A stretch of 64,000 nucleotides of DNA. Origin: Candidatus Omnitrophota bacterium (GTDB lineage: Bacteria; Omnitrophota; Gorgyraeia; JAFGIU01). Location: contig JAFGIU010000041.1 of NCBI GenBank assembly GCA_016929445.1, forward strand, positions 1,929 through 65,928. Direction: 5' to 3'. A model generated the notes under the pieces. The model had not been told where the DNA came from. It saw only the letters and a list, made by a program, of their open reading frames with translations, and made no database searches. Made by a program: the position numbers and the translations under genes. Below are positions 1,343-64,000 of this stretch, one piece after another. Position 1 is the stretch's first letter. Every line of letters starts with the position of its first letter.

Positions 1343-3289
1343 ATGCCCGACTTCAATCACGCCACTGTTGTTTGCTTCGAAAACCGCAAGGCCGAGCGCC
1401 TGGCTGCCCTCGTCCGGGAGCACGGTGGCAATCCTCTCTCCGCGCCGGCCATGCAGGAAATCCGCCTCCAGAAGAACCCCGAGCTCCTGAGTTTCGGAGA
1501 GCGGCTCACGGCCGGGACCATCGACGTTGTCCTGTTTATGAGCGGCGGTGGCGCAGCCCATCTTTTGGACACCCTTTCTGCGATCTACGGAGCAGATGCC
1601 CTTTGCGCAGCTTTAACGAAGACCACTGTTCTGGCGCGCGGCCCAAAATCCGCTGAAGTTCTGAGCGCGGCAGGCCTTAGTGGTTTGCTTGTGGCGCCGG
1701 AGCCCAGTACTTGGCGTGAGGTTCTGGAGGTCCTGGACATGAGCGAGCGCGGCATTGAGTTGGAGGGTAAGTGCGTCGCAGTCCAGGAATCCGGCAGTTC
1801 CAATGCGGCTTTCTTGGCGGAACTTCAGCAACGCGGCGCGCGTGTGGTTCAGGTGCCTATTTATCGTTGGGCTCTTCCGGACGATACGCAGCCGCTCAAG
1901 AATGCGATTCATAGCCTTGCCTCCGGGAAAATTCCCTTTGCGGTCTTTACCAACAGCACGCAGGTGCGTCATGTGATGCGCATCGCCGCGGAGCTGGGAC
2001 TTCAGCCCCAACTCACGGAAGCCTTTCGCAAACACACGGTGGTGGCTTCAATCGGTCCCTCAACCACGGATGTGCTTCAGGAATTGGGGTGGTCTGCGGA
2101 TTGGGAATCGCTCGTGTCGCGCTTGGAGCCCTTGGTCATTGAGCTGGCGCGACATGCGGCCGAGTTGAGGCGCCGGAAGGTGGATCCGGAAGAGGCTGCT
2201 GCCCTTTGGGTGCAGGAGCGTTCGCAGGCCAAGAAAGAATCAGGCCCTGCGAGGAATCGATCCCATTTTCTCTTGGCCTGTTGGGGGGAGCCCACAGAGG
2301 TGACGCCTGTTTGGTTTATGCGCCAGGCCGGGCGCTATATGGAGGAGTACCGCAGGATCCGGGCCAAGGTTCCTTTCCTGCAAATGTGCCGCAATGCGGA
2401 TTTGGTTGCCGAGGTCACGGTTTCAGCGGCCGAGCGCATTGGCGCGGATGCGGCCATTGTGTTCTCCGATATCTTGGTGGTCCTGGAGCCCATGGGTTTG
2501 GGGTTGCGCTACTCGCGCGGCGAAGGGCCGGTGATCGAAGGGCGGATTCGCGGGGCAGAGGATATCCACCGCCTCGGCGAAATCAATGCGCGTGAGAGCC
2601 TGCAATACGTTTTTGACGGAGTGCGGCGGACGCGCGAGGCCTTGGCCGATCATTTGCCGCTCATCGGTTTTTGCGGCGCGCCTTTTACTCTGGCCTCCTA
2701 CATCTTGGAGGGAGGTTCCTCCCGTCAATTTCTCAAGACCAAGCATCTGATGTATACGGATTCCGGGGCCTGGCACGCGCTGATGGGCATTTTGACGCGC
2801 GGGCTCATCCATTATCTCAACGGTCAGATCGAGGCAGGCGCGGACGCAGTTCAGATTTTTGACAGCTGGCTGGGTTGCTTGAGCCCGGAGGATTACCGCG
2901 AGTCTGTGCTGCCTCACACACAGGCGCTTATCCAGGGAGTGCGCGAGGGAGTGCCCGTGATTCATTTTGGAACAGGCACGACTTCAATCCTGGAGGACAT
3001 GCGCCGCGCGGGCGGGCAAGTTATCGGTGTGGACTGGCGTGTGGACCTGGACGCGGCGCGCATCCGCGTGGGTTACGAGCGCTCGGTCCAAGGGAATTTG
3101 GATCCTGCCGTGCTCTGCACGGATTACCCGACCATCCGCCGGCACGTGCGCCGCATTCTGGAGCTCAACGGCGGGCGGCCCGGCCATATCTTTAACCTGG
3201 GACACGGGGTCTTGCCTCAAACACCCGTGGACCATGTTATTGCGGCCATTGACATGGTGCATGAGATGTCATTGCGGGGCGGACGCTAG
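1343..3289 (+). CDS. hemE: Fused uroporphyrinogen-III synthase (HemD, N-terminal ~300 aa) / uroporphyrinogen decarboxylase (HemE, C-terminal ~340 aa)
   Basis: ATG at 1343. The N-terminal half matches the HemD/HEM4 two-lobe pattern. The C-terminal half has the hallmark HemE motifs (PVWFMRQAGRYMEEYR, IGFCGAPFTLASY, VQIFDSWLG). Single uninterrupted 648-aa frame. Confidence 0.85.
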   Translation: MPDFNHATVVCFENRKAERLAALVREHGGNPLSAPAMQEIRLQKNPELLSFGERLTAGTIDVVLFMSGGGAAHLLDTLSAIYGADALCAALTKTTVLARGPKSAEVLSAAGLSGLLVAPEPSTWREVLEVLDMSERGIELEGKCVAVQESGSSNAAFLAELQQRGARVVQVPIYRWALPDDTQPLKNAIHSLASGKIPFAVFTNSTQVRHVMRIAAELGLQPQLTEAFRKHTVVASIGPSTTDVLQELGWSADWESLVSRLEPLVIELARHAAELRRRKVDPEEAAALWVQERSQAKKESGPARNRSHFLLACWGEPTEVTPVWFMRQAGRYMEEYRRIRAKVPFLQMCRNADLVAEVTVSAAERIGADAAIVFSDILVVLEPMGLGLRYSRGEGPVIEGRIRGAEDIHRLGEINARESLQYVFDGVRRTREALADHLPLIGFCGAPFTLASYILEGGSSRQFLKTKHLMYTDSGAWHALMGILTRGLIHYLNGQIEAGADAVQIFDSWLGCLSPEDYRESVLPHTQALIQGVREGVPVIHFGTGTTSILEDMRRAGGQVIGVDWRVDLDAARIRVGYERSVQGNLDPAVLCTDYPTIRRHVRRILELNGGRPGHIFNLGHGVLPQTPVDHVIAAIDMVHEMSLRGGR

Positions 3290-4261: not shown

Positions 4262-4316
4262 GGGGACAGGTCTCGCCAACCGCTTATACACCAATAAGTT
4301 GTATGAGAACCGTCCC
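4262..4316. repeat. Hairpin repeat family copy A (GGGGAC(A/G)G(T/G)TCTC ... GAGAACCGTCCCC arms, ~30-nt loop)
   Basis: Direct reading. Imperfect 13-bp inverted arms flank a variable loop, between convergent hemH and redoxin genes. Related copies at 8385, 40378 and 45979. Confidence 0.6.
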
Positions 4317-4938: not shown

Positions 4939-4977
4939 GGTGCCAGGCACCGGTGCCTGGCACCCGTGCCTGGCACC
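4939..4977. repeat. Palindromic repeat family copy 1 (GGTGCCAGGCACC|GGTGCCTGGCACC; core GGCACCGGTGCC)
   Basis: Perfect 26-bp palindrome plus an extra half-copy, flanked by CGTTTCACGG. It lies in the divergent intergenic region between the redoxin gene and giant-protein paralog P1. Related copies at 40657 and 60934. Confidence 0.7.
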
Positions 4978-5037: not shown

Positions 5038-5066
5038 TTGATTAACTATGTGTGTAGTGGTATGCT
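5038..5066 (+). promoter_or_regulatory. Candidate sigma70-like promoter (TTGATT-17-TATGCT) for paralog P1
   Basis: Read from sequence in an AT-rich stretch upstream of ATG 5105. Hexamer matches only, no other support. Confidence 0.25.
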
Positions 5067-7021
5067 TAGACTATTCTGTCCCTCTGAATGTCCTTGGAAA
5101 TAAAATGGAGCCTATTGTGATAAAACAAGTTACACGTGTTGGACTCATTGCATGTCTTCTCTCTGTTGCTTGGGCCTTTGCCCCCACTAACTCGTCTTTT
5201 GGCGCCCCAACCCCCCAACATCTGGCAACCACCCCCACTTTTGGAGCAGAAGAGATCCAGCGCACCTGGAATGCCTGGGCCCTGCAGCCGGAGGTGCTTC
5301 AGAGAATCGCAGAGCTCAGTAAAGAAAGCAGGCAGGCCTTTGATGCCCTGGGCCTGACGGATTTTCGCGACCGTGTGGCCCTGGTTTTGGCGCGTGCAGC
5401 TGTTGAACGCGGAGTCCATACAGAACTTGCCATGCGACCTGAGCGAATCGGTGCACTGGGAGGAATGCTGGGCCGTGAAATTGACGGGGAACTGGCTCCG
5501 TATCTCTCCGCTCTCCTTGATTTGGGAACTCCATCCGAAGATCCAGAGAGGGATAAGCTGATCCAAGCCTGGCAGGAACTCCTCCCATTCCGCGCAGCCG
5601 GCGGTCTCCCCAGTGTTGGTATGGTGATCGGTGGAACGAATGTACGGGCGGGGGCTATGACAGAGACCGCAGTAGTGAGGGTAAAGTCCCGTGCATGGCG
5701 CGATGTCCAAATCAACGAACGCACAGTGGCACACGAACGGGCGAAAATTCAGCGAGACTTCATGTTAGAGGATCTACGCGAAGAACTTAAGCATCTCCTC
5801 GGGGATCTTAGCCTCTCTGCCGCAGACATCGGCAAAATCGGTGTGTCCTGGGCTGCCCCCGGAAGATACGAAGAGGGCCTGGTGTATATGACTCCAAAGA
5901 CTCCAGCCTTCATGCCTGAGCACATGGGGTATTACGTCGTATCAGATCCCTATATTGTCCGGCACACAGATGGGCAAGTGTACTTCGATCTCCGTCGTTG
6001 GCTTCAGGAGACAATTCGCATGGTATTCCCGGGCGCCCCCAAGGTCGAAGTGGAGATCCTGCACGATGGCGCGGCCGCAATCTCGGGAGAATTGCCTTAC
6101 CAAGTCCGCACCGGGGCGCTAAAGGCAGAGTACCTTGATGGTCATGCGGTGTATGGAGGCGTGGTCTGGCCCGGATCTGAAAATGAGCGAGTTATCCAGT
6201 TCGGGATCGGAGAAGTAGGTTTGACCACTTATGCCGCAGAGATGCGCGGCACTCAAACAACGGAAGCCATGCGGTTGGATCCGCAAGTATATTTCGAGGG
6301 TTCAAAGCCCCAAGAGGGCGAGGCGTCCCTGGAACACTGGGTGGGGGGCGTGGCTGTGGCCCGGCGATTTGTCCAGGCCGTTGAGGATTCTGTGAATGGG
6401 AATGAGGCTGCTGTACAAACCTTCTTTGGCACTGATCTAAGCCTTGCCGAGCTGTACAAAGGCTGTTCGAAAAACGGCGATGAGCGCGACGATGAGGTGA
6501 GTGACATGGTCCTCAAAAAATGGGGGCAAGAGCTCAAGACCCAAGGAGAGAATTCGATTGCATGGACGCTCATGGAAGCTGTGGCTGAAGACGAAGGCCG
6601 TGCGCTTGCCTTACTGCTGCATGCATATCCCAAGGGGTACGCGCTGGGTTTGATCAACGGCACGGGCATCGGATGCGGTTTTTACAAGCTGGACAATGCA
6701 GAACTGCCTACTGTTATCACTCTTGTGGGAGGCTTTCATGAGAAGGCTGCCACAAATCTGATCGAAGGAACAGACGATCCCTTTATGGGGCTCTTGTGGG
6801 CTGCCGCCGGAAAATGGCTCCGGGAGTTCGGCGCAACAGAGGCTGAGCAGCAGAATCTGCCTGGAAGGATCATCCGCTCCACCAACAATCCCGGGCTGCG
6901 GGACCTTCAGGCCTTTCTCGCCGAGCGGCCTCCGGTTTTAATCGAAGCAGACATCCCGCCGGCGACTGAGAGTATCCGCATTGAAGTCCGAGTTCAGAGA
7001 GACCTGGACAGCTCGATCTAG
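5048..7021 (+). CDS. Large secreted protein, family paralog P1, with an ASKHA (ROK/glucokinase-like) domain; function unknown
   Basis: Likely true start ATG 5105 (MEPIVIKQ...). Sec signal peptide (AWA-FAP). The ~40-aa N-terminal block after the signal (FGAEEIQ...LQRIAELSKES) is shared with P2 (FGDAEIE...LQRIAELSEAS). The middle carries ASKHA/ROK-like motifs (VGMVIGGTNVRAG, ILHDGAAAISGE, NGTGIGCGF). Confidence 0.65.
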   Translation: MCVVVCLDYSVPLNVLGNKMEPIVIKQVTRVGLIACLLSVAWAFAPTNSSFGAPTPQHLATTPTFGAEEIQRTWNAWALQPEVLQRIAELSKESRQAFDALGLTDFRDRVALVLARAAVERGVHTELAMRPERIGALGGMLGREIDGELAPYLSALLDLGTPSEDPERDKLIQAWQELLPFRAAGGLPSVGMVIGGTNVRAGAMTETAVVRVKSRAWRDVQINERTVAHERAKIQRDFMLEDLREELKHLLGDLSLSAADIGKIGVSWAAPGRYEEGLVYMTPKTPAFMPEHMGYYVVSDPYIVRHTDGQVYFDLRRWLQETIRMVFPGAPKVEVEILHDGAAAISGELPYQVRTGALKAEYLDGHAVYGGVVWPGSENERVIQFGIGEVGLTTYAAEMRGTQTTEAMRLDPQVYFEGSKPQEGEASLEHWVGGVAVARRFVQAVEDSVNGNEAAVQTFFGTDLSLAELYKGCSKNGDERDDEVSDMVLKKWGQELKTQGENSIAWTLMEAVAEDEGRALALLLHAYPKGYALGLINGTGIGCGFYKLDNAELPTVITLVGGFHEKAATNLIEGTDDPFMGLLWAAAGKWLREFGATEAEQQNLPGRIIRSTNNPGLRDLQAFLAERPPVLIEADIPPATESIRIEVRVQRDLDSSI

Positions 7022-7025
7022 ACCG

Positions 7026-8351
7026 CTATTGCGTTGCCGTAAAGAATTTCTTGGTGCCCTTGGCCTCGATGGCGGCGCCGATCCGGTTCAACGCATGCGC
7101 GTAGGCCGCGGTGCGCATATCAATCTGCTTCTCTTCCATAAAACGCCAGATGTTTTCGGTCTCAGCCACCATGCGCTCCTTGAGCAGGCTGTTGACCTTG
7201 TCCTCGGACCAATAGAAGCCTTGCCGGTTTTGCACCCATTCAAAATAGCTCACGGTTACGCCACCGGCATTGGTGAGGATATCCGGCACCACGAGTTTGC
7301 CTTTGTTATTGAGGATTTCATCCGCGGCCGGGGTTGTGGGGCCGTTGGCGACCTCAAAGATGTACTTGGCCTTGATTCGATCGGCATTCTCTGCCGTGAT
7401 CTGGTTCTCCAGGGCCGAGGGCGCCAGGATATCCACGTCCAACTCCAACAGCTCTTCGTTAGTCAAAGTCTGGTGCTCCTCGATATGACACACGGAGCCT
7501 TCACAGTACACGGCCTTGAGTTGTTTTCGTTTTTCCTTGAACCGGCGCACCATGGGAATGTCCAAACCTTGCTCGGCATACACGCCGCCTTTGGAATCAC
7601 TCACCGCAATGATTTTGTAACCTGCTTCGTGCAACAGCTCGGCCAAAATCCCGCCCGCATTTCCAAAACCTTGAATGGCCACGGTCGTGTCTTGCGGCGC
7701 CTTGCCCAACTTAGGCATGATTGCCTCGATCGTGAAGAATGCCCCGCGCGCAGTGGCTGACTCGCGACCCAGGCTGCCGCCCATGGGAATGGGTTTGCCG
7801 GTGATGACTGCAGGTACGTGCTTATGATTAATAATGCCGTATTCATCGAGCATCCAACCCATGATCATCTGATTGGTGTAGACATCGGGCGCGGGGATGT
7901 CGCGGTCCGGGCCGATCATGATATTGACCGCATCAATATAGCCGCGGCTCAGGCGCTCCAGCTCAAAGCGGGAAAGCTCCTTGGGATTGACCCTGATTCC
8001 CCCTTTGCCCCCGCCAAAAGGCAGGTTGAGCGCCGCGCACTTAAAAGTCATCCAAAACGCGAGAGAGGTGACCTCATCCATATTGACGCCCGGATGAAAA
8101 CGGATTCCGCCCTTGGTCGGGCCGAGGGAATCGTCGTATCGCACGCGATATCCCGGAAAGACTTTTAAATCCCCGGTATCCATGCGCACAGGAATTGAAA
8201 CCTTCAATGCGCTCTTCGGATACTTCAATCTTTCAATGGCATCCGGCGGCACGGTCGCATGCGCGAGCGCCTTGACCACGCGTTGGCTAGCTTCCGCAAA
8301 TAGACTTTGCTCCACTCCGGCAGCTCCTTTGCTGATGAAGTCAAGGGACAT
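7026..8351 (-). CDS. gdh: NAD(P)-specific glutamate dehydrogenase
   Basis: GDH signature throughout, including the catalytic-Lys motif GGGKGG and the GFGNAG dinucleotide fold. The ATG at 8351 (MSLDFISKG) is the preferred start. The ORF as given extends to 8399 with a non-ATG start. Confidence 0.9.
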   Translation of the reverse strand: MSLDFISKGAAGVEQSLFAEASQRVVKALAHATVPPDAIERLKYPKSALKVSIPVRMDTGDLKVFPGYRVRYDDSLGPTKGGIRFHPGVNMDEVTSLAFWMTFKCAALNLPFGGGKGGIRVNPKELSRFELERLSRGYIDAVNIMIGPDRDIPAPDVYTNQMIMGWMLDEYGIINHKHVPAVITGKPIPMGGSLGRESATARGAFFTIEAIMPKLGKAPQDTTVAIQGFGNAGGILAELLHEAGYKIIAVSDSKGGVYAEQGLDIPMVRRFKEKRKQLKAVYCEGSVCHIEEHQTLTNEELLELDVDILAPSALENQITAENADRIKAKYIFEVANGPTTPAADEILNNKGKLVVPDILTNAGGVTVSYFEWVQNRQGFYWSEDKVNSLLKERMVAETENIWRFMEEKQIDMRTAAYAHALNRIGAAIEAKGTKKFFTATQ

Positions 8352-8384
8352 ATCTACGAAGGAGATGTGTCCCTCAGGACTTGA

Positions 8385-8439
8385 GGGGACGGTTCTCACA
8401 GAACTGGATGCAGCGAAAAAGGCTAGCGAGAACCGTCCC
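8385..8439. repeat. Hairpin repeat family copy B
   Basis: GGGGACGGTTCTC ... GAGAACCGTCCC arms with a ~29-nt loop, immediately upstream of the gdh start. Confidence 0.6.
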
Positions 8440-8610
8440 TAATCTTGACTCATTCTAACCGCTGAATGCTGAATTCGCATTAGAGTTTGTAACTTATTTG
8501 CAAACAAGTATTTAGAAAGAGGATCTCAAATTCTTGAATGCCGTCCTGAAGCTTATTTAGATGATATACTTTGTTGTAAATATACTAATTGGCACAAGTT
8601 ATACGAAACT

Positions 8611-11600
8611 GTGATGAAGAAAAGAAATCTCTTGCCCGCAACGATTGCTTTTGTAAGCGTGCTTCTCGCTGCGATTCCTTGCGCCAATGCATCAGCCCCC
8701 AAACTCGCGACCATCGCAACCTTTGGCGACGCAGAGATTGAAGCCTTCTGGATCAAGCGCTATAGAATCGACCCCACTCGCCTTCAGCGTATTGCCGAGC
8801 TCAGTGAAGCATCTCCAAGACTTTTCAACACATTGATTGGGAGAAGCAATCCTGGCGCTGCTTGGCTCTCTCTGATGCTTAAGGAGGCTGCGGAAGAGGC
8901 CGGTGCAACTGGAGTGCCCTCCGAGGAAGTGTTACGTTGGATGGAATCGCAACCAGGGCAGCAGGGTTGGTCTCTTCTTGCAGATGCTAAGTCAGTCTTG
9001 GCGCCGTCTGGCAGACGCAAGAGCCTGGAGTCGTTACTCGGCTCGGAAGGGAGCGCTCAGCTTTTGGGTTGGGTGAATCAAACACTTGCAGGACCGATGC
9101 CTGAAGGGTTTCACGATCCCTTCCGGGCGTATCTTGGGAGCGATGTGGTCAACGAAGTCCGGGCCATAAATACGGTGATGAGAGAACTCGGTTATCCCCT
9201 TTCAGATTGGATATTGGAAGAGTGGCGAGAACTACAGAGACTCGGAGAGCAAGTTGCCCTGGCCATCCCCAATATTGAGAACTTGGATGAAGAACAAAGG
9301 ATGCAATATCCGGAGTATGTACGCCTCAAGAGGATGCGGAATTTCTTGGAGCTTTATGTGAACGATTTGTACCAGTTGGAATGGATCATTCGGCACACTC
9401 AGGAGAAAGAAGCTGAGTATTGGCCTGCAGTTTGGGCGACTCTTGAGGTCAGGGCTGGTGTGAGTCGCACGCAGATCCAGGCTTCTGAGAGCGTGATTCG
9501 CGATCTGTTGGTGAACTTACCGTTGGAAGGATCATTGCGTAAACCCTTTATTGGTGAGAGGGAGCAAAAGATCTTGTTGAGGTTGAGCCAAGAATGGGGG
9601 GTGCCATTGGGCAGGCTAGCAGCGCTCATTGAAGAGGAACAACATCGGGGCGAAAAACAGAAGGGCCTTGAATTACTGCAATCTGGTCGTGCTAGCGTCG
9701 ATTACCAGATTGCCATGATGCATGCATTCCAGGAGAACCTGGCTGAGATTCTACACGCACCGATTCAAGCAGGCGAGGTCATTGTCCATAAGATTCCATC
9801 CGGCGAGTCTGTAACCCAACTATTTGCAACTCATGCAACCCAGCCGGAGTACTTGGCATCAATGGCTTTAATGGGGATTATGGGGGAGGCCCCTGCCAGG
9901 AAAATAGCACCGTCCTCTGTTCAGGCCCTCAGCGGTGGGGCGGTGACGACGGGCACTTCTTTCCAAGTCGGCGCAGTGGAAAGAACCTTTGGAAATATTC
10001 CTAATCCCTATGGATTTTACGATCCCCAACACAATTCAATGGCGAAACATGGATATCAATATTTCTTGATGACGAATCCCAGGCCTGGGGGTGAGTACGG
10101 AGTGTTTATTCCTTGGCAGCAAATGTGTGAAGCGCGTAGGGATCGAGACTTGGATATTCAGCTTTACCAAGAGTGGAGTGTCGGGGGTGAGACTTTTAGG
10201 AGAAAGATCGCCGAATTGGGTAGGGTGGGTGCAGAGGAGTGGCGTGACCAAATGATGACACAGCTCACTATCTACAACAGTGACGTGCAACAAAGGATGA
10301 GAGCTCGGGGGGTAAGAGATCTTGAGAGGGCGGTGCAGGCTTGGAGAGAAGAAGGGACGATTGCCACAGGCAGAGATCCGTGGATGATTGAACACCGTGC
10401 TGCGGGGGAGGAGCAGGGAGAGATTACCATTTACCCTCCAGTGGACGGCCTGGATATCGACGCCCAGGGCGGTATGCTGATGGTCCCAGCAGCACAGCTC
10501 GAGGCCTTTCTCCTGGATATCATGCAATTTGCGGCCGAACACGGACTGCCGCTCAATCCTGACAAAGTCCTTCCACGCGTGGTTCCCTATGAAGAGGAAA
10601 ACCTGCAGCTCGCCATGTTGGCTATGGAGCATCGCGATCTGAATGAGGTCAGGGCTTCAGCACGAGATAGAGTCTGGAGAGCGTGGGATGCTCTTACGGG
10701 AGTTAGACCGCGCCTCGAACTCCTCTCCCCAGAAACAGGCCGGGAAGCATTGGAATTGTTTGGCGTAGTTTGTTGTAAAGTAATGGCTGAAAAGTATGGT
10801 GAGTCGCTTGGCCAAGCCGCAGCCACGATTGCAGGAGACCCAGTGACATTTGCGATAATCATCTCTAATGAGGACATTTTATCCGCATTTGTAGAGGCAG
10901 TGAAGAAACGCTTTGGTGCGGAGATCTCGACGGAGGAGGTCTCGAAGGCATTCAAAAAGCTTTGGTTTCATCGAGAGGTACCTACCAATCCGCTGCTGAT
11001 TGCTGCAGAGGGAGATAGGGTTGCGCTGTCAGGGTTTTCTGCCGAGGAAGCCTCGAGACTCTTACAAGCTGCGGTGCTTGCATCCAAGGGAGGAATTTTG
11101 TCAGAGGGGAAGAACAGTGTTGTTGCTGCAAGCGGGGGAGCATCGATCACCTTTTATAGTTCTGGTACTGCTATTGTAGGCTGGCGCTCTGAGGCAAAGC
11201 AATGGATGGCAGGGCAACAGAGGGCATGGGTGCGAGAGGCGCTCACCACAGCCTATGCGTATGACCTTTTTGAAGAGCCCCATTGGGATCCATTCCTGCG
11301 GCAGTACCTACATTTTCTACCTTTAAACCTCTCTGAGGAAGTGGTCGAGCGGTTGCTCGCGAGTGAAAATACAAACAAGGAAGAGGTCTTTACAGCGCCC
11401 GAGGAGCGTGCGATTGCTGAGGCGGCCATCCGGGGCATCGCAGGGTGTCCCTCAGAGGATCTGGATTGGCAAAGCGATCCGGACGGATATGAAGTCGCAG
11501 AGATTAGTCAGCAGCCTGACGTGTTGGGTCGCATCTTTGGTAGTGAACGCATCCAAAGGGCCTGGACAGTTCGTTATGAAGGGCTTCCGCTGTTATTGGC

Positions 11601-13419
11601 GGCGCAGGTGGACGACCGAGCACTGTACACTCGACTTTCTGAATCCCGTCAGGCAGACCGAACATTGCTCCGCTACTTTAGGACAGATCCTTCCGCACGC
11701 ATGTGGGCGGTTCATCCTTATGGTGTTTCGCACATCGGGCCGGGCTCGGGTGCTGTGGATCAGTTGCGCATCCCTGTGCTGCCCGGAGTGTGGCCTGGAG
11801 GCTATGCCAGCTTGTTGCTCGAGGCTGCCCTGCCACTCATTCAGGAGGGGGACGAGGTGGTGGACCTGGGGTGTGGAACTGGGATTATTGGAATTCGTGC
11901 TGCTGAGCAAGGCGCGTTTGTGCAAGCCCTGGACTTAGACCTGATGGCTGTGGAAAACACGCGAGTTGCCGCAGAGATTTCTGGGGTGGCCGATCGCGTT
12001 GTGGCCAAGGTATCTGACGGGTTGGCCGAGGTGCAGGAGCCGGTGGACTTCATTCTTTTTGGTGCCCCATTGGTGCAGCCAGAAGCGGCCGAGGATGACG
12101 CGCGCCACACGGCCACACGGGATGGCGGATTCAATCTGATGCGGTCCGTTATGCAGGATCTTCCGAGAAAACTGAAGCCCGGAGGCTCGCTCATCATGTA
12201 CAACAACGACTTTGTGACAGAAAAGATCCTCAGAGGATTTCTGGGGGGGCATTCTGGTGACTTCCAAATGCGGAGTCGGAAAAGTGAGAGCGGACTGGTT
12301 GTCTGGGTAGTGGAATACCGGCCCGTGTTGTTGCCTTTGGGGCCAGAGGGGCTGCCGGATGCACTACACCTGAATATCCCGGGAACGGGATACAACTCGA
12401 TGGCAATTCCGGAAGTGGCGGAAATATTTCGTTCCTATTTGGATGATCTGGCAGATCCCGAAGGGGCTCTCGCCTTCCAGCTCAAACGAAACCTTGCAGG
12501 TTCGATGGCAGGCTGGCCGACCTTCGAAAATCATTCCGCCTTTTTGAGGCAAATCGGTGGAGAGGTTGGGATGGGTTCAACGGTCTACTATCCATTTGGA
12601 GGCGCCGATCCGTACACACCTTTTGCTATGGATTCTGATGTAGAGGATGTTATCGCTTTTGGTCTGGAAAACTTCGGTTCCCCGGGGGATATTCAAAAGA
12701 TGTTCGGAGACGGCAATTATTACCACAGGGTGGGTGGGTTATTCGGCGGGATTGATTCTCATCTGTCCTTAGTCAATATGCTGCAGCGTCTGGGCTTGAA
12801 CGGCATAGGACCTTTGGCTTTGGCACGTTGTGTCAATTTTTTGGGAGCAGGAATAGAGGGAGTTTACTATTTTGATCTCCAAGAGGACGGCGACTTTAGA
12901 TTTTTGACTGAGGAGGACATGCGCGACCGTCCTGAGCAAGGGTTTAGGAATGCCGTAATTCAGTTTGAAGATCCTCATACAGGAAGGCTCAAAAGGTTCT
13001 GGTATATGCAGGACAATGTCTATGATCAAACATCACCCTTCAGAGCAACCCTTGGAAGGTTGCGTTTCGATACCCTGCTTCTCAAAGGCGCGCTGGACTT
13101 TCTTGAACCCGGTACGGATCCAAGCGATGTGGTGGATGAAAAGGTACTGCAGCAGGCGCGAAGACTGAACGCCAATGTGGTTGCGGATATGAACCAACAG
13201 CATATGAGCCGAGGCATTTGGAGAGTTCGACCCGATAGTATTCCTATTCCATTGGGCGAAATGTTTGGCTACGGCGGTGTGCAGCAAGGCGGAGAAGTCC
13301 ACTATGGGCCCTCAACTATGCTGGTGGAAGGCCCGAGTCGTGCGGATGAGGCGCGGCAGTTGCACCTAGGGACATGGCCTTCGCAGCAGGCAATAGTCGC
13401 TATTGAATCTTCTCTGTAG
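8611..13419 (+). CDS. Giant secreted protein, paralog P2 (1602 aa), with an internal degenerate HemK/PrmC-like SAM methyltransferase domain
   Basis: Signal peptide (ANA-SAP). N-terminal block shared with P1. The MTase domain (~aa 1030-1200) has IPVLPGVWPGG (compare HemK VLIPRPETE) and VDLGCGTGIIG (motif I), but FGAP replaces the NPPY motif IV. The MTase region is shared with P3 (IPVLPGVWPPG ... LDLGCGTGVIG). Preceded by a 170-bp AT-rich region. Confidence 0.8.
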   Translation: MMKKRNLLPATIAFVSVLLAAIPCANASAPKLATIATFGDAEIEAFWIKRYRIDPTRLQRIAELSEASPRLFNTLIGRSNPGAAWLSLMLKEAAEEAGATGVPSEEVLRWMESQPGQQGWSLLADAKSVLAPSGRRKSLESLLGSEGSAQLLGWVNQTLAGPMPEGFHDPFRAYLGSDVVNEVRAINTVMRELGYPLSDWILEEWRELQRLGEQVALAIPNIENLDEEQRMQYPEYVRLKRMRNFLELYVNDLYQLEWIIRHTQEKEAEYWPAVWATLEVRAGVSRTQIQASESVIRDLLVNLPLEGSLRKPFIGEREQKILLRLSQEWGVPLGRLAALIEEEQHRGEKQKGLELLQSGRASVDYQIAMMHAFQENLAEILHAPIQAGEVIVHKIPSGESVTQLFATHATQPEYLASMALMGIMGEAPARKIAPSSVQALSGGAVTTGTSFQVGAVERTFGNIPNPYGFYDPQHNSMAKHGYQYFLMTNPRPGGEYGVFIPWQQMCEARRDRDLDIQLYQEWSVGGETFRRKIAELGRVGAEEWRDQMMTQLTIYNSDVQQRMRARGVRDLERAVQAWREEGTIATGRDPWMIEHRAAGEEQGEITIYPPVDGLDIDAQGGMLMVPAAQLEAFLLDIMQFAAEHGLPLNPDKVLPRVVPYEEENLQLAMLAMEHRDLNEVRASARDRVWRAWDALTGVRPRLELLSPETGREALELFGVVCCKVMAEKYGESLGQAAATIAGDPVTFAIIISNEDILSAFVEAVKKRFGAEISTEEVSKAFKKLWFHREVPTNPLLIAAEGDRVALSGFSAEEASRLLQAAVLASKGGILSEGKNSVVAASGGASITFYSSGTAIVGWRSEAKQWMAGQQRAWVREALTTAYAYDLFEEPHWDPFLRQYLHFLPLNLSEEVVERLLASENTNKEEVFTAPEERAIAEAAIRGIAGCPSEDLDWQSDPDGYEVAEISQQPDVLGRIFGSERIQRAWTVRYEGLPLLLAAQVDDRALYTRLSESRQADRTLLRYFRTDPSARMWAVHPYGVSHIGPGSGAVDQLRIPVLPGVWPGGYASLLLEAALPLIQEGDEVVDLGCGTGIIGIRAAEQGAFVQALDLDLMAVENTRVAAEISGVADRVVAKVSDGLAEVQEPVDFILFGAPLVQPEAAEDDARHTATRDGGFNLMRSVMQDLPRKLKPGGSLIMYNNDFVTEKILRGFLGGHSGDFQMRSRKSESGLVVWVVEYRPVLLPLGPEGLPDALHLNIPGTGYNSMAIPEVAEIFRSYLDDLADPEGALAFQLKRNLAGSMAGWPTFENHSAFLRQIGGEVGMGSTVYYPFGGADPYTPFAMDSDVEDVIAFGLENFGSPGDIQKMFGDGNYYHRVGGLFGGIDSHLSLVNMLQRLGLNGIGPLALARCVNFLGAGIEGVYYFDLQEDGDFRFLTEEDMRDRPEQGFRNAVIQFEDPHTGRLKRFWYMQDNVYDQTSPFRATLGRLRFDTLLLKGALDFLEPGTDPSDVVDEKVLQQARRLNANVVADMNQQHMSRGIWRVRPDSIPIPLGEMFGYGGVQQGGEVHYGPSTMLVEGPSRADEARQLHLGTWPSQQAIVAIESSL

Positions 13420-15753: not shown

Positions 15754-18231
15754 TTACTCAAATTTGAGCAGGTACCACGGACTCTGCGTGCCGCTCAAAT
15801 TCAGATCATGGCGCACGCGTCCGGACGCCAGGGAGGGCTCTTCATGGGGCTCGCCTTTTTCGTCGAGCGCATAGACCTGCAGCGAGTAGCGGTCGTGAAT
15901 GAAGAGTTGCAGATCCATGCCGCACAACATCGGTGTGCCGTCTCCCCATAAAAAGTGTTTGTCGCTGCGGCGCTTACTGCCGCGCGCTTGCAGGGGGCCC
16001 ACCGCATACAGAATCAGCTCTTGTGCTTCATCCAAAGGAACTCCGTCCGGGGCAATGAGGGCGCCAACGCCCTGGGAGCGGGTGTGGAACAGGGTCCGGC
16101 GTTTGGGGCTGGGGTTTAGGGCCGGGGCTCCGTAAATAATCGCCGCGCTGGAGTTGCTAAGGCCAATTCCGGTTTCGCTCACGGTCTTCTTCAGTTCCTC
16201 TTTTCCCAGATAAACCAGACTGCCCAAACTGCAGAGCAGGAGCTGTTGCGGGTTCGCCGCGATCTCAAAGTAGTCGTTTACTGCGCTGGCGTATTCATAG
16301 GAGTCAGCGCTATTCGCGAAGTTGTACTGGAATACTGCATCCCATCCGCGCTCTCTGGCGGTGTGGGCCAGGAGTACCGGCGTCTCCCAAGAGAATGTAT
16401 TGGGATAGCAATGATTCCATTCGCTTACGGTGAAGGGTTTGTCGCGGACTTCTTTCTCGATCAATCCGGCGAGCAGCCCCGTCTCCTCGGCCTCGCCCTC
16501 CTTGCCGAAGATGGATTCATTATGGATCCGGAAATCGCTGCGATCCCAGGCTTTGTCCGGGAACTGCGGGTAATCCCAAAATGCCTGGGCATCCACATAG
16601 TCCAGGTCTTCTTGGGTCCTGAGATTTTCCGGCAGAGGGTAGCCGCTGATGCCTGTGACCGGGACTTGAACCCCCGCCTCCACACGCAGAAAGCGCTCCA
16701 TCTCCGTGAAATAGGCCCTTTCCAATTCCAGGTAGAATTCCCGGATGTCCTTTTGCATGAGCTCAGGATAGAAATAAAGCCATGCGTACTTGGGGCGTTT
16801 GAAGTCAAATCGTGTCCTTTGGGCTTCCTTCATCAAAATGGGCAGAGTCGTGACCTTGGAGAGCCGCACATCTTTGATTCGCACCATGGCTTTTTGGGCG
16901 CCGAAGTAGAAGGTGAGTTTGGCGTTGAGGCAGTCGTCCGTGGCCGTAAAGGGAATCTGGTAGATGCGCCAGGCGCGATCCAATTCGCAAGATTGGTCAA
17001 GGCCGAGATGGGTGAGCGGAAAAGTCGCCTGCTGAATTACCGCCTGGATGTTGAGTGTGCGGTCTGCGCTGCCGGTGAATTCCAAGAGGTAGTTTTGCCC
17101 GGCCACAGTGGGAATGCGATTGCGCCGGTACTGAAGGTGCTCGGCTTTTCCGGTAACCAGATCGGCGTGCAGGATGGCCGCGCCGGCTGCGGAGTTGAAA
17201 CGGCAACGGGCATCGGCGTGTTTTTCGACCACCCACAGATGATCTTGCTGAACAATGGCGCGCTCCACAGGTTCCAGACCATCGAGGCCCCAGATAGCAA
17301 TGGCCTCCGCCGGGGTGGGGTATTTTTTCTCCAGCCAACGGTTCCACCGGTCATCCAGCTGCTTCAAGTAGAACTCCGGCAAATAGGCCTTTTCCCACAG
17401 ATTGTCGGGTTCGTTGAGCCGGCCTTGTTGCCAGGCCCGGATCAGGGAACAGTCGTTGACGATTTCGACGAAGGCGACAGCGGGTTCCTCAGAGTAGCGG
17501 CTTTCGGTGTAGGGGTTGTAGTGCGTAAGCAATTGCTTTGCGTAAATTTGTTGGAGCTTGATGAGGTGCGGGTCAAATAGACAGGCAGGCTTTGCTCCGG
17601 GGCCGAGCAGTCCGGCTTGGACAACACCGTCAGCCACCGTGAACCGGCGGTTGGTCAGTAGATTGAATGCGGTGTAGATGCCGCGCCGCTTAAGCAAGTA
17701 AATTAAACGGTCCATCCGGTCGAGCTGTTCCCTGCTGATCAATTGGGTGTTTTTGAGTTGCGGGTCGGTGTAACCGGGGGCACTGTCCTCCAACAAGCCA
17801 TCGGGGGCAAAGGCGCTGTCGATATCGCTGAAGCGGACTGCATTGAAACCGAAAAAAGCGATGCGATCTGCCGCAAACTTGGCCTCTTCCTCCGGAGGGA
17901 ATGCGCCTGAACGGCACAAATTAGTGCCCCAGAAGCGAGCTGGGCTGCCGTTATCAAATTGAAAATCCGCGCCGTTAACCTCGACATAGCCGTGAATACC
18001 GGCCGGCGCATTCAGCACATGCCTCCCGATATTGGCTGGAGAGTCCGGGTCGAGGTTTTTGTCCAGGGTAAAGGCGTACCAGGCCTCGGTGCTTTGAGCA
18101 AAGGCGGGCGGTATGAAGAGAAGAAACAGGGCAATCGTCATCGCAATGACAAAGATTGCTTTCCCTTCGGCAGGCTCAGGGTCGCAATGCCGGATTAGAT
18201 CTGCTCGCGGTGGCCTTGGAGTGATGGTCAT
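15754..18231 (-). CDS. Secreted glycoside hydrolase (TIM-barrel, GH5-like/cellulase superfamily)
   Basis: N-terminal signal/TM (IALFLLFIPPAFAQS). RFWGTNL and NAVRF motifs typical of GH clan A. Its ATG overlaps the stop of the upstream kinase (ATGA coupling). Confidence 0.55.
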   Translation of the reverse strand: MTITPRPPRADLIRHCDPEPAEGKAIFVIAMTIALFLLFIPPAFAQSTEAWYAFTLDKNLDPDSPANIGRHVLNAPAGIHGYVEVNGADFQFDNGSPARFWGTNLCRSGAFPPEEEAKFAADRIAFFGFNAVRFSDIDSAFAPDGLLEDSAPGYTDPQLKNTQLISREQLDRMDRLIYLLKRRGIYTAFNLLTNRRFTVADGVVQAGLLGPGAKPACLFDPHLIKLQQIYAKQLLTHYNPYTESRYSEEPAVAFVEIVNDCSLIRAWQQGRLNEPDNLWEKAYLPEFYLKQLDDRWNRWLEKKYPTPAEAIAIWGLDGLEPVERAIVQQDHLWVVEKHADARCRFNSAAGAAILHADLVTGKAEHLQYRRNRIPTVAGQNYLLEFTGSADRTLNIQAVIQQATFPLTHLGLDQSCELDRAWRIYQIPFTATDDCLNAKLTFYFGAQKAMVRIKDVRLSKVTTLPILMKEAQRTRFDFKRPKYAWLYFYPELMQKDIREFYLELERAYFTEMERFLRVEAGVQVPVTGISGYPLPENLRTQEDLDYVDAQAFWDYPQFPDKAWDRSDFRIHNESIFGKEGEAEETGLLAGLIEKEVRDKPFTVSEWNHCYPNTFSWETPVLLAHTARERGWDAVFQYNFANSADSYEYASAVNDYFEIAANPQQLLLCSLGSLVYLGKEELKKTVSETGIGLSNSSAAIIYGAPALNPSPKRRTLFHTRSQGVGALIAPDGVPLDEAQELILYAVGPLQARGSKRRSDKHFLWGDGTPMLCGMDLQLFIHDRYSLQVYALDEKGEPHEEPSLASGRVRHDLNLSGTQSPWYLLKFE

Positions 18232-40377: not shown

Positions 40378-40433
40378 GGGGACGGTTCTTGATTACCCCT
40401 TTCATCACGGCAGCTTACGCGAGAACCGTCCCC
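40378..40433. repeat. Hairpin repeat family copy C
   Basis: GGGGACGGTTCTT ... GAGAACCGTCCCC, beginning 6 nt after the stop of the small ORF. Confidence 0.6.
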
Positions 40434-40481: not shown

Positions 40482-43400
40482 TTGGATGCTAGACTTGAGC
40501 TTATGCATCCTTTTCGCTCCCACCCTCCTTTGAAGTCATTTAAGCCCCGCGGTTTTTGGGCCCTTCGGGGCTGGGCTGTCATGCGGCCAGTGGCCCTGCT
40601 GATTGCCCAAGTCTTCTTCTTTTCCAGCGTGGATTGCGCATGGACCTCTGACCTCGGTGCCAGGCACCGGTGTCAGGCACCGGTGTCAGGCACCGGTGTC
40701 AGGCACCAAAACTTGGCAGTGCGGGCCAGGTATGAAGGCGAGGTTGCCGCGGCAATGGACGCATGGCTGGTTGCTCCGGGAGTCAAGGAGCGTGTGCTTA
40801 TGCTGCCCACCGAGAGCCGTGCGCAACTGCTCGGCCTGGTTGGGGCTGAGCAGGAAGCATTTCTTCACAACAGAATGGTGGAGTTGGCCCTGGAGGACGG
40901 GCAGGCTGAGCTGGTGGCAGGGATGGCACAAAAGGCGCTTGAGCGCCTGGATTCTTCCGGGCCCAGAGGCTGGCCTCATCCGGCATTGGCGGAGAGTTCT
41001 GCAGCGCTCCGGGCGCTTTTGGAGCAAGACCCCTCTGCATACGAGCGTTTGCTGGCTCTGGAGGAGGAACGCTACGAGCGCACCTATCCGTACTCTGATT
41101 CAGTACTGGAAGACCTTCCTAATTTCCGCCGTCATCTCAATCACAAGCTCGCACTGTTGATGGTGGTGGAAGAGGTGGAGACAGTTCGATGGTTATTGGA
41201 TAAAGGGCTCCTTCAAGAACACGAGATTAACTCTTTTCTGAGTGTGCGACGCTTATTGCTTTCTCTGGTGATGACTCCCCAACCGGAACCCGAAAATGAC
41301 AGTGAGTATTGGCAGGTCCCGAATATTCAGGATCACCTGGGGCGGATGGGAAGCATGCTGTTGGTTTTGCTGTACGAAAACCGGGATCGCTTTGAGATTT
41401 CTTCCGACGAGATCTTGGAAGTCTACTTCACAGCCCTTACCCACGACTGGGGGGATTATTACACGGAGTCCAGCGATCTAATTGTGGTTAAGGAGGTTGC
41501 CCGGCAACTGGGCATTGACAGTTCGGCCGAGAAGTACCTTCGAGGCGGATTTCCGCAATTGTTGGAGGACCTCAACTTGGCGGTTGATGAGCGCGGGAAT
41601 GAAGTCGATCCCGCATGGATGACCCGCTACAATGCGGTTCAGCCCCGGTTCGATTTGTTGGTGACTCGCAGTAGCGCCAAGAATCCGCTGGATCATCATT
41701 CCAAAGGCCGCTACGAAGAGTTCCTGTTGAGGGAGGATGTGCGGGCGCTTTTGGAGCCGTTGAGTTTCCGGGGTCGTGCCGTGACCCGGATGCTGGACGA
41801 CTTCCGGTATCTGACGCACCACCACGCTTCCCAGGAGCTGGAGTTCGATCTGTCCCCAGAGTCTCATCGAGGCCCGCGCCTCGCAGAGGCACAGAAGCCC
41901 GCAGCGCAGGACATTCCCCGTCGCGTCCAATATTGGGAAGGTATCTCCCTGACCGGGGATCAGAAGGGCGTGTTGGCATTGCTTCAGGCCGCGGATATGT
42001 ATCAGAAGCGTCTCAATGCCGCCAACAACATGTGGTTCTATCTGAACAGTGTTCGAGCCTTCCGTCCCGCGGACGTAAAGGACTATGTGATGGCCTTTCC
42101 ATTTGCAAGGCCCATCGCCTCCAGCATAAGAAAGGTCGCGGATAGCGGCGATCCGCTCTTCTCCGGCGCGGCGGTGCGGAGTATGGGCTATGTAACGGAG
42201 TTGCCGGACACAGGAACGGGAGCTGCGGAAGAAGACCGGCCCGGCGCCAACACGGCATCGCGGGCAGGTGAAGTAGGCCACAGCACAATGAACCGGGTGG
42301 CCTTTATGAGCGACAAGTACCAGGCGTGGCGGGCGGGTGAGGGCGTGGAGGAGGGGGCCTTGCTGCGTGAGGCGCTTCCCTTGCCGGAGGATCTGCAAGG
42401 GTCTTGGGGCGGGTTTATGGCCGATCTGCAACAGCGCTTTGATGCGGTGGACGAGAGCGGGGCGCCTCTGATCCTGGACGGGATCGAGCTCCCGGCCTCC
42501 CAATCCCCGGCCGGCGGAATGCTGCGCGCCCCGCCCCTGCAGATTCCGCTCTCCGCTCTTCTCAACGGACAAGCCCGCATTGCCTCCGGCCTTCCCACCG
42601 GCGAAATGATCCACATCAAAGACACGTCCATCGTGCTTTTGGACACCGAAGAAGACTTCCTGGCGGCCGAGCTGCACGAGGATCTGGAGAGTGTGTCCGT
42701 GCAATTCGCGCATGCGGGCCGCGGGTTGCATGGCGAGCCGGGGCGGGAGCAGCGGCTGGTGGTGTATTTGTCCAAGGCCATGGTTGAGAAGGCGCTCCAC
42801 CGTGCGGAGGGCTATGCGCCGGAACACTTGATGGCCCTGATCGCCGAGGAGATGGCCGAGGAAGTGCGGCGCAGGCAGGCGGAGATGCTTTCGGCACAAT
42901 TGGGGCTCGGAGGGGCGGCCGCGGTGGCCCTGGAGCAACGCATTGTGGACGCAACGGACGCGCAGTTAACCAAAGCGGGCGGGGCGTTGGAAGGTGTTTT
43001 TACAGATCGCGATACGTATGCCCAGCTTGGAGATCGCAGAGAGCACCTCGTACAGTCCCTTGAGGGATTGGATACGGGCGTGCTTGCAAGATTGCGGCAG
43101 ACGGCTCCGGACAAGCTGGCGGAGTTCTTCCGCTATCGCGAGGCCCTGTTGGGGCCGAATCCTCCGCTCGACTGGCGCAATCTTCCGGCTAATGGGGCGC
43201 TCGATCTGTATGAATCCCATATTGCCGACGTGCTCGCATTGGAAATGGTGATTCAGGGATACAACCTGCACAAGGGACGGGTCGTATTTTCGATCGCCGA
43301 CTGGTTGGGTGCGGGCGCAGAGATCGCGGCGCGCGGTTCTTTTGATTTTGAAATCCGAGTAAAGCTGCCCGAACTGAATGGGGCGCCCTCGGAAATGAAG

Positions 43401-45978: not shown

Positions 45979-46033
45979 GGGACAGGTCTCGCCATCTCAT
46001 TGCCGGCCAGTGGGTTACGCGAGACCCGTCCCC
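45979..46033. repeat. Hairpin repeat family copy D (variant arms GGGACAGGTCTCGC / GCGAGACCCGTCCCC)
   Basis: Between the P3 stop and bcp. A partial extra GGGGACGG follows at 46054. Confidence 0.55.
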
Positions 46034-60933: not shown

Positions 60934-60980
60934 GGTGTCAGGCACCGGTGCCAGGCACCGGTGCCTGACACCGTGAAACG
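60934..60980. repeat. Palindromic repeat family copy 3 (GGTGTCAGGCACC|GGTGCCAGGCACC|GGTGCCTGACACC, then GTGAAACG)
   Basis: Direct reading. Reverse-oriented relative to copy 1, including the CGTTTCAC flank. Sits 18 nt upstream of the epimerase start, at the head of the 10-gene glycan operon. Confidence 0.7.
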
Positions 60981-63905: not shown

Positions 63906-64000
63906 CTCTGTGAGTTCGTGAAAGACTGTTCGGCAAAAGCGTTCCGGTGTGATTTCCTCGAGCTGGCCGGGCCGGGTTTCAGAGGGCCATTGCCGGTTGA

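Follow-up and report, generated by a model that had tools for sequence, protein, structure and literature searches.

Modular proteins with predicted export signals and a common C-terminal pentapeptide in a Candidatus Omnitrophota genome

Introduction

A stretch of 64,000 nucleotides from contig JAFGIU010000041.1 of a Candidatus Omnitrophota bacterium (assembly GCA_016929445.1), referred to as the window, encodes four long proteins, P1 to P4, which end in LDSSI, IESSL, LESSI and LESAL, respectively, that is in a pentapeptide of the form hydrophobic-(D/E)-S-(S/A)-(I/L). This common tail is a new observation. P1 contains a divergent ROK-type ASKHA domain, P2 and P3 share a module with a class I methyltransferase domain, and P4 has nothing in common with the other three except the tail. 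With a probability of about one half we regard P1–P4 as lineage-specific Sec-exported modular proteins which resemble small versions of the multi-enzyme long proteins of Omnitrophota that bear signal peptides or transmembrane (TM) segments.

For Omnitrophota and allied uncultured phyla a life on or off other cells is assumed, and the leading candidates for this interaction are their very long exported multi-enzyme proteins, which are too large and too unique in sequence for study. As short single-module versions P1–P4 would be much more tractable, since one ROK-like domain or one methyltransferase module could be expressed. In addition, they expose features which are hidden in the giants, namely an export-linked ROK-type domain without kinase hallmarks and the shared pentapeptide.

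Giant Omnitrophota proteins containing methyltransferases, glycosyltransferases, signal peptides and TM regions have been described (West-Roberts et al., 10.1101/2023.11.21.568195). According to a complete-genome survey from 2026, 94% of 916 proteins of at least 10 kilo-amino acids (kaa) have a signal peptide or TM helices, most of the long proteins are unique in sequence and 46% are read as TM-anchored and cytoplasmic; the Pfam co-occurrence modules comprise methyltransferase, starch synthase and ROK PF00480, the latter in 44 proteins (10.64898/2026.06.07.730766). Both preprints place a type II secretion or pilus-like locus beside the giant genes (10.1101/2023.11.21.568195; 10.64898/2026.06.07.730766). 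Export signals combined with ROK or methyltransferase modules have thus been described already, and P1–P4 are small variants of this kind; the statement of an earlier sequence-only reading of the window that this combination could not be placed in a described family is out of date. The same reading called the proteins giant; with 638–1811 amino acids (aa) they are far from the usage of the field, which starts at 10,000 aa.

The common C-terminal tail

A six-frame scan of the window gave 502 stop-to-stop open reading frames (ORFs) of at least 60 aa each. Four of them end in [DE]S[SA][IL], and these are exactly P1–P4; none of the about 50 other plausible genes of the window has such an end. The last three residues are encoded by AGC TCG ATC in P1, TCT TCT CTG in P2, TCC TCC ATC in P3 and TCT GCG TTA in P4. 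Given these different codons and unrelated downstream sequences, the tail does not stem from a common DNA element at the 3' ends; what is conserved is the peptide and not a DNA repeat.

The pentapeptide together with the terminal carboxyl group has the form of a class I PDZ-binding motif. C-terminal signals of the sortase, exosortase or type IX secretion type were rejected because a TM helix, a basic tail and a C-terminal domain of ~80 aa are all missing, and a type I secretion signal was judged unlikely given the N-terminal Sec signal. Possibly together with the leader block described below, the pentapeptide might be an undescribed sorting or processing tag of lineage-specific exported proteins, recognised at the tail by, for example, a protease with a PDZ domain or a component of a secretion apparatus, although we consider this proposal doubtful. 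If it were true, cargoes as unrelated as a ROK-like sugar binder, methyltransferases and an acidic leucine-rich protein would share one route to the cell surface or a partner cell, and the exported 'toolkit' of such genomes could be listed from the sequence alone.

Long proteins from elsewhere which possess a P1-type domain terminate in -HSAA (P0002), -AKAA (P0003), -DASA (P0004), -AQAA (P0005) and -SQAA (a giant ORF of contig L022, L022:2-20173). Ala-Ala or Ser-Ala termini are found far above chance in about ten sequences with this domain. They may represent a different C-terminal tag in related lineages, which hints at C-terminal tags as a general feature of these long proteins.

Predicted export signals and leader block

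Export was read from a hydrophobicity scan with 19-residue windows (KD19) and from the charge pattern, which is a heuristic and not a SignalP result. Exactly one strongly hydrophobic 19-residue window, located at the N-terminus, exists in each of P1, P2 and P3, and no internal candidate for a membrane helix was obtained from the scan of these proteins. The N-termini of P1 (MEPIVIKQVTR-VGLIACLLSVAWAFA) and P2 (MMKKRN-LLPATIAFVSVLLAAIPCANA) consist of a basic n-region and a hydrophobic segment, followed by AFA and ANA, respectively. No positive charge is present for about 20 residues past the hydrophobic segment in either protein. By these heuristics both N-termini fit the pattern of a cleavable Sec signal, in line with the signal peptides assigned to them before.

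The post-signal block that P1 and P2 had been said to share is borne out as well. This leader block (FG..EI...W......LQRIAELS.ES) is 37–48% identical in the two proteins (BLASTP 37% over 79 aa, E 9e-6; tblastn E ~4e-6), and P3 matches it weakly (E ~0.3). It is absent from P0010, a P1-like protein of another metagenome whose similarity to P1 begins at residue 162. The leader is thus common to paralogues with different cargo and not to relatives with the same cargo, and in that sense the proteins are mosaics. The hydrophobic leader has a wider occurrence: the P1-like proteins P0002 (629 aa) and P0010 (687 aa) and an ORF of contig L021 also start with one, so that the pairing of an export signal with a P1-type domain recurs.

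In a tiled Smith–Waterman comparison of P1–P4 no shared module was found besides the leader block, the P2/P3 module and the tail. These three bear out the mosaic architecture with shared modules which the sequence-only reading had proposed; P4, which it had placed in the same comparison as P1–P3, is connected to them by the tail and by no other module.

The ROK-type domain of P1

P1 has no direct match in Pfam (even at E <= 10), NCBIfam, PHROGs or the sequences of the PDB. A word-indexed protein search gave nothing with P1 and one protein with the profile of the P1 family. An exhaustive HMMER search of 1.84 billion representatives resulted in six relatives (E 8e-22 to 6e-4), matching P1 residues ~150–570. 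The Pfam ROK model PF00480 scores above its cutoff in P0005 (38 bits), where it covers the same stretch as the P1 match, and in P0006 (46 bits), where it overlaps a weaker P1 match. The cutoff is also passed by the giant ORFs of contigs L017 (46.5 bits) and L022 (53.3 bits), both carriers of a P1-related domain. Furthermore, the top matches of a seven-sequence profile among PDB sequences are exclusively ROK kinases and regulators (glucokinase 2qm1, E 1.3e-4; N-acetylmannosamine kinase 2yhw, E 3e-4).

An AlphaFold2 model of P1 residues 140–638, calculated with the family alignment, reached a mean predicted local distance difference test (pLDDT) of 71 and a predicted template modelling score of 0.70. 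In a Foldseek search with this model ROK glucokinases, hexokinases, ManNAc kinases and Mlc-type repressors rank first (E 3e-9, probability 1.0), and ROK proteins are the nearest structural neighbours of the two-lobe ASKHA fold of P1. The three ROK-type motifs on which P1 had been assigned to the ROK/ASKHA group are real, and the fold is confirmed by both the profile search and the structural comparison.

The hallmarks of a kinase are missing. At the Mg-ATP aspartate of the DxGGT motif P1 has a valine (VIGGTN), and the aspartate is absent in all six family members that align at the motif, the position being occupied by Leu, Ile, Ala or Ser in the relatives; the seventh sequence, P0003, begins downstream of DxGGT and does not enter this count. 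A regular-expression scan, with a GlcK sequence as positive control, detected neither the PS01125 signature nor the zinc motif CxCGxxGC in P1 or any relative, and the P1 model has a pLDDT below 50 where the two would lie. The sugar-contacting segment HDGAAAxxGE is kept (ILHDGAAAISGE in P1), and D182 and E190 are invariant in the family alignment. Judged from these residues the domain most likely binds sugar rather than phosphorylating it and, like the ROK repressors, would not be a conventional ATP-dependent kinase; the lack of such an activity would fit an ATP-free location. The idea of a pseudo-enzyme, which had been raised for the methyltransferase discussed below, is plausible for this ROK-like domain without the ATP-site aspartate and is not indicated for the methyltransferase.

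The methyltransferase module of P2 and P3

P2 aa 927–1212 are 33% identical to P3 over 288 aa (BLASTP, E 6e-30). In the tiled Smith–Waterman comparison the two proteins score 239 against a null maximum of 64, with a similarity that spans approximately P2 826–1276. The core of the module belongs to the MTS-type class I S-adenosylmethionine (SAM) methyltransferases: the score for PF05175 (gathering cutoff 23) is 43.3 bits in P2 and 26.1 bits in P3, which corroborates the HemK/PrmC-type core described earlier for both. NCBIfam models for HemK2/Mtq2, PrmA, PrmC and RsmC also match, all of them far below their cutoffs (TIGR03534 with a cutoff of 199 bits: P2 32.8, P3 17.3; TIGR00537 with a cutoff of 87: P2 51.7, P3 16.9).

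Both proteins retain the PGVW strand (PGVW/PGVF), motif I VDLGCGTG and the acidic residue after beta-2 (LDLD/SDID). The loss of the catalytic NPPY in motif IV had been recognised correctly; the replacement given for it, FGAP, is one residue out of register, since the HMMER alignment to the HemK of T. maritima (1sg9) shows GAPL in P2, and P3 has AAPR at this position. Since the SAM motifs have been kept in both P2 and P3 and motif IV, the substrate motif, is the sole one to deviate, the evidence favours a changed substrate over a pseudo-enzyme. The enzyme is likely still SAM-binding and probably active, with neither a glutamine amide nor a nucleobase amine as its substrate.

The remaining ~1200 aa of P2 have no match in Pfam, NCBIfam, PHROGs or PDB, and most of both P2 and P3 is unrecognisable in family searches, as expected from the more than 1000 aa without any motif noted before. 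A single-sequence AlphaFold prediction of P2 aa 403–1602 was too poor for use (pLDDT 37.5). The word-indexed protein search with P2 returned P2 and nothing else; since it missed P3, which is in the collection and 33% identical over 288 aa, its negatives are weak evidence. P1 is not contained in that collection under either ATG start. Scans of genome contigs for the P2/P3 module (GTDB species representatives, to which the source genome does not belong; alignment query) gave no true relative, and 15 contig matches to the back-translated IPVLPGVWP pattern were judged to be chance. At NCBI the entries for P2 and P3, MBN1586473.1 and MBN1586500.1, both have the title 'MAG: methyltransferase [Candidatus Omnitrophica bacterium]' (MAG, metagenome-assembled genome) and come from the same 83,996-bp contig.

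Relatives of P1 in long and giant proteins

The P1-type domain is found in considerably longer proteins of other organisms. P0003 is an Auribacterota 'glycogen/starch synthase' of 1539 aa, P0005 (1978 aa) and P0006 (1827 aa) combine ROK with phosphomannose isomerase, HAD or UDP-glucose pyrophosphorylase domains, and P0004 has a length of 2953 aa with a 4124-aa protein in its cluster. In metagenome contigs of JGI the domain lies inside ORFs which are open over 18–20 kb (>6000 aa); it stands alongside Dus, Maf and ARMT1-like domains in L017 and alongside a methyltransferase domain in L022.

On the 4.4-kb metagenome contig L016 the gene of P0002 (2074–3963) is preceded by that of a 529-aa paralogue (369–1958), which also starts with a hydrophobic leader and contains the N-terminal half of the ROK-like domain in degenerate form; its beta-rich C-terminal module is the same as that of P0002. 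Tandem mosaic paralogues thus exist also in another organism.

Genomic surroundings

The positions of all features are listed in Table 1. P1 and P2 flank gdh, which lies between them on the opposite strand, and the ORF list and the Pfam match of gdh agree with the arrangement given in the sequence-only reading. The frame of P4 is still open at base 64000, the end of the window, so that its N-terminus is outside.

Table 1 Features of the 64-kb window. CDS coding sequence, KD19 hydrophobicity over 19 residues
Feature	Position	Strand	Remarks
P1 CDS	5105-7021	+	638 aa; long ORF
P1 predicted Sec signal peptide	5105-5182	+	aa 1-26 MEPIVIKQVTRVGLIACLLSVAWAFA; sole segment with KD19 >= 1.6; basic n-region, AFA site; heuristic
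P1 post-signal leader block	5219-5350	+	found with P2 block by tblastn against the window, E 3.4e-6
P1 divergent ROK-type ASKHA domain	5558-6952	+	aa ~152-616
P1 tail LDSSI	7004-7018	+	
P2 CDS	8611-13419	+	1602 aa; MBN1586473.1, NCBI start one codon downstream
P2 predicted signal peptide	8611-8691	+	aa 1-27, ANA end; single peak KD19 2.22; heuristic
P2 post-signal leader block	8704-8835	+	tblastn E 5.8e-6
P2/P3 common module in P2	11389-12246	+	P2 aa 927-1212; ~140-aa pre-domain and methyltransferase core
MTS-type class I SAM methyltransferase domain in P2	11809-12213	+	P2 aa 1067-1201; PF05175 43.3 bits, E 4e-11
Motif IV position in P2	12061-12072	+	GAPL for NPPY; HMMER alignment to T. maritima HemK 1sg9
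P2 tail IESSL	13402-13416	+	
P3 CDS	40482-45917 (ORF); NCBI start 40503	+	~1800 aa (1811 as ORF; MBN1586500.1 1804 aa)
P3 methyltransferase module	44079-44930	+	
P3 tail LESSI	45900-45914	+	ALESSI with preceding Ala
P4	61410-64000	-	orphan acidic leucine-rich protein, at least 862 aa
P4 tail LESAL	61413-61427	-	
gdh (glutamate dehydrogenase)	7026-8399	-	Pfam ELFV_dehydrog E 3.5e-78; housekeeping; context only
13-nt palindrome array GGTGCC(A/T)GGCACC	4939-4977		three units; 128-166 nt upstream of the P1 ATG
Sister 13-nt palindrome array	40656-40707		within NCBI-annotated P3 CDS, between signal peptide and leader; translated GARHRCQAPVSGTGVRH
Sister 13-nt palindrome array	60934-60972		downstream of P4
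Inverted-repeat element	8386-8439		between gdh and P2
Sister copy of inverted repeat	4263-4316		between hemH and ahpC
Sister copies of inverted repeat	40379-40432, 45979-46032		bracket P3

About 35 of the ~50 ORFs of the window were scanned with Pfam, and four of these besides P1–P4 matched no family. Housekeeping neighbours are a hemD-hemE fusion, gdh, a Rrf2 regulator beside an apparent suf operon, two peroxiredoxins, a glycogen debranching enzyme and histidine kinases. Another group is related to envelope glycans and comprises GT1, GT2 and GT4 glycosyltransferases, a polysaccharide deacetylase, several small methyltransferases, epimerases, FemAB-like acetyltransferases and a PMT_2-like transferase. 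Among the scanned ORFs no secretion, pilus, PilZ, PDZ, toxin or immunity-like gene was detected. P1–P4 themselves have no toxin or trafficking domain of Pfam, and the genes downstream of them are gdh and those for a DUF3313 lipoprotein, a peroxiredoxin and an epimerase. A search with Rfam revealed no RNA family and no rRNA in the window.

The G+C content at third codon positions (GC3) is 0.574 in P1, 0.542 in P2 and 0.592 in P4, below all of the 18 reference genes (0.608–0.724), whereas P3 is typical with 0.689. This is a clearer signal than the AT-rich 5' regions reported in the sequence-only reading, which are only mild (GC 0.50–0.54 against ~0.55).

Repeat elements near the genes, which had been noted as well, are indeed present in two types. 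The first is a perfect palindrome of 13 nt in tandem arrays of three to four units. Since 13 cannot be divided by three, the frame of P3 would be shifted if the array inside this gene grew or shrank by one unit, so that this array might act as a phase-variation switch. The 13-mer contains TGGCAC, but visual inspection showed no −12 element, and a sigma-54 reading was therefore rejected. The second type is an inverted repeat in four copies with conserved arms of 12–13 nt (GGGAC[GA]G[GT]TCTC and its complement). The arm starts are 42 nt apart in every copy and the ~30-nt spacers are variable. All four copies are intergenic, two of them adjoin peroxiredoxin genes, and the three which were folded form stable hairpins (z −3.7 to −5.4) without a match in Rfam; the element may be REP-like, an operator or a terminator.

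Two further ORFs were observed in the window. The hemD-hemE fusion (1343–3289, plus strand) encodes 648 aa with uroporphyrinogen-III synthase (HEM4, residues 19–265) joined to uroporphyrinogen decarboxylase (URO-D, 307–641), and a ferrochelatase-like ORF follows. An orphan ORF of 825 aa (15754–18231, minus strand) has a strong N-terminal hydrophobic segment and no Pfam match, adjoins two histidine-kinase genes and carries neither the leader block nor the tail of P1–P4.

Evaluation of the possible explanations

The architecture that we propose for the family consists of a signal peptide, a short leader (clear in P1 and P2, weak in P3), a variable cargo and the common pentapeptide. P1–P4 would be exported by Sec and their signal peptide would be cleaved. 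Leader and tail would serve a common step after export, such as sorting, tethering or processing, and the cargo modules might have glycans or proteins as targets or ligands, either from the producer's envelope or from a partner cell. This proposal builds on observed facts, namely the ORFs and their shared modules, the fold or family of both domains, the tail motif and the relatives in giant ORFs.

Several points weigh against it. SAM is not expected outside the cytoplasm, so that an exported methyltransferase would have no obvious cofactor supply unless it reaches another cell. The relatives with a ROK-like domain are fused to typically cytoplasmic enzymes. Export itself is predicted by heuristics, and the match of P3 to the leader block is not statistically significant. 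Each protein has one recognisable domain and is 6–15 times shorter than the catalogued long proteins, and no type II secretion or pilus locus was found nearby in the scanned ORFs, unlike the giant genes of the preprints. Finally, 55% GC and the full heme, suf and gdh gene set seem unlike the usual Omnitrophota. Especially the difficulty of cofactor supply keeps two other explanations alive, one in which the proteins stay at the membrane and one in which they enter a foreign cell.

In the first, the N-terminal segment would be an uncleaved anchor, and P1–P4 would be inner-membrane-tethered enzymes which face the cytoplasm and act with cytoplasmic SAM and nucleotides on envelope-glycan precursors from the neighbouring genes. 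Such a location would suit domains that depend on SAM and, ancestrally, on ATP. The fusion of ROK-like-domain relatives to phosphomannose isomerase, UDP-glucose pyrophosphorylase, HAD and starch synthase points in the same direction, as does the richness of the window in glycosyltransferases, small methyltransferases, epimerases and deacetylases; in addition, the survey from 2026 reads 46% of the long proteins in this way (10.64898/2026.06.07.730766). However, positive charges precede the hydrophobic segment and none follow within about 20 residues, which predicts an N-in/C-out orientation with the bulk of the protein outside. A canonical AxA also stands behind the h-region in P1 and P2, and further TM segments are missing. 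We therefore consider a cytoplasm-facing arrangement unlikely.

In the second explanation, P1–P4 would form a polymorphic family of effectors or toxin-like proteins. After delivery into a host or prey cell their modules would act with the SAM and sugars of that cell, and the shared termini would be the delivery signals. The SAM need of the methyltransferase favours an intracellular action, the termini are shared in mosaic fashion while the cargo differs, repeat elements flank the genes, GC3 is low in P1, P2 and P4, and Omnitrophota have been proposed in the literature to be host-dependent or predatory. However, a Sec signal peptide alone cannot deliver a protein into another cell, and neither a recognisable toxin domain nor a small immunity-like gene after any member nor a secretion system was found in the scanned ORFs of the 64 kb. 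Only four members were found, and P3 has a normal GC3. The polymorphic surface or effector proteins of which the sequence-only reading was reminded are thus not supported, and delivery of this kind seems quite improbable.

That the genes are decaying or spurious ORFs without function is very improbable: their orphan sequences, atypical codon usage, low GC3 and origin from a metagenome-assembled genome, the absence of P1 from the protein collection and the missing P2 homologues (word-indexed search) and P2/P3-module relatives (genome scans) could be taken that way, but the word-indexed search overlooked even P3, chance would not be expected to leave 638–1811 codons uninterrupted, paralogues with only 33% identity have conserved methyltransferase motifs, the tail peptide persists despite different codons, and P1 has relatives and a confident fold.

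Comparison with known systems

Secreted methyltransferase effectors such as Legionella RomA, Chlamydia NUE, E. coli NleE and M. tuberculosis Rv1988 offer an analogy only. P2 and P3, if they were effectors, would be like them in that the enzyme leaves its producer and would use the SAM of the target cell. The known effectors use other folds or type III, type IV and ESX routes, whereas here neither homology nor such a delivery system was found.

The MTS methyltransferases of the HemK/PrmC, HemK2/Mtq2, RsmC and PrmA types (PF05175) share with P2 and P3 the class I SAM fold, the PGVW/PGVF strand, DLGCGTG and the acidic residue after beta-2. They differ in motif IV, which is GAPL or AAPR in P2 and P3 in place of (N/D)PP(Y/F), and the scores of both proteins are far below the NCBIfam equivalog cutoffs. 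Furthermore, the domain of P2 and P3 is embedded in proteins of 1600–1800 aa with a predicted export signal, and it is preceded by a pre-domain of ~140 aa without a match in the libraries searched.

Compared with the ROK family (PF00480; glucokinases 3vgk and 2qm1, NanK 2yhw, Mlc 1z05), P1 has no Pfam match and lacks the DxGGT aspartate, PS01125 and the zinc site. It contains about 150 extra residues of helical insertion and an additional GTGIGxGF segment ahead of the strand of the adenosine motif, and its domain sits behind a predicted N-terminal export signal.

The Archaeovorin-type long or giant multi-enzyme proteins of Omnitrophota are at least 10 kaa long and tile many domains, whereas P1–P4 have 0.6–1.8 kaa and one recognisable or Pfam domain or none each. 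P1–P3 are without internal TM helices, and no type II secretion-like locus or PilZ gene adjoins P1–P4 in the scanned part of the window. The leader block and the common pentapeptide were not found by keyword in the two preprints (10.1101/2023.11.21.568195; 10.64898/2026.06.07.730766). Both groups are alike in an N-terminal signal or TM segment, predicted by heuristics in P1–P3, combined with normally cytoplasmic enzyme domains, including methyltransferase and ROK PF00480, and in large unrecognisable stretches of mostly unique sequence.

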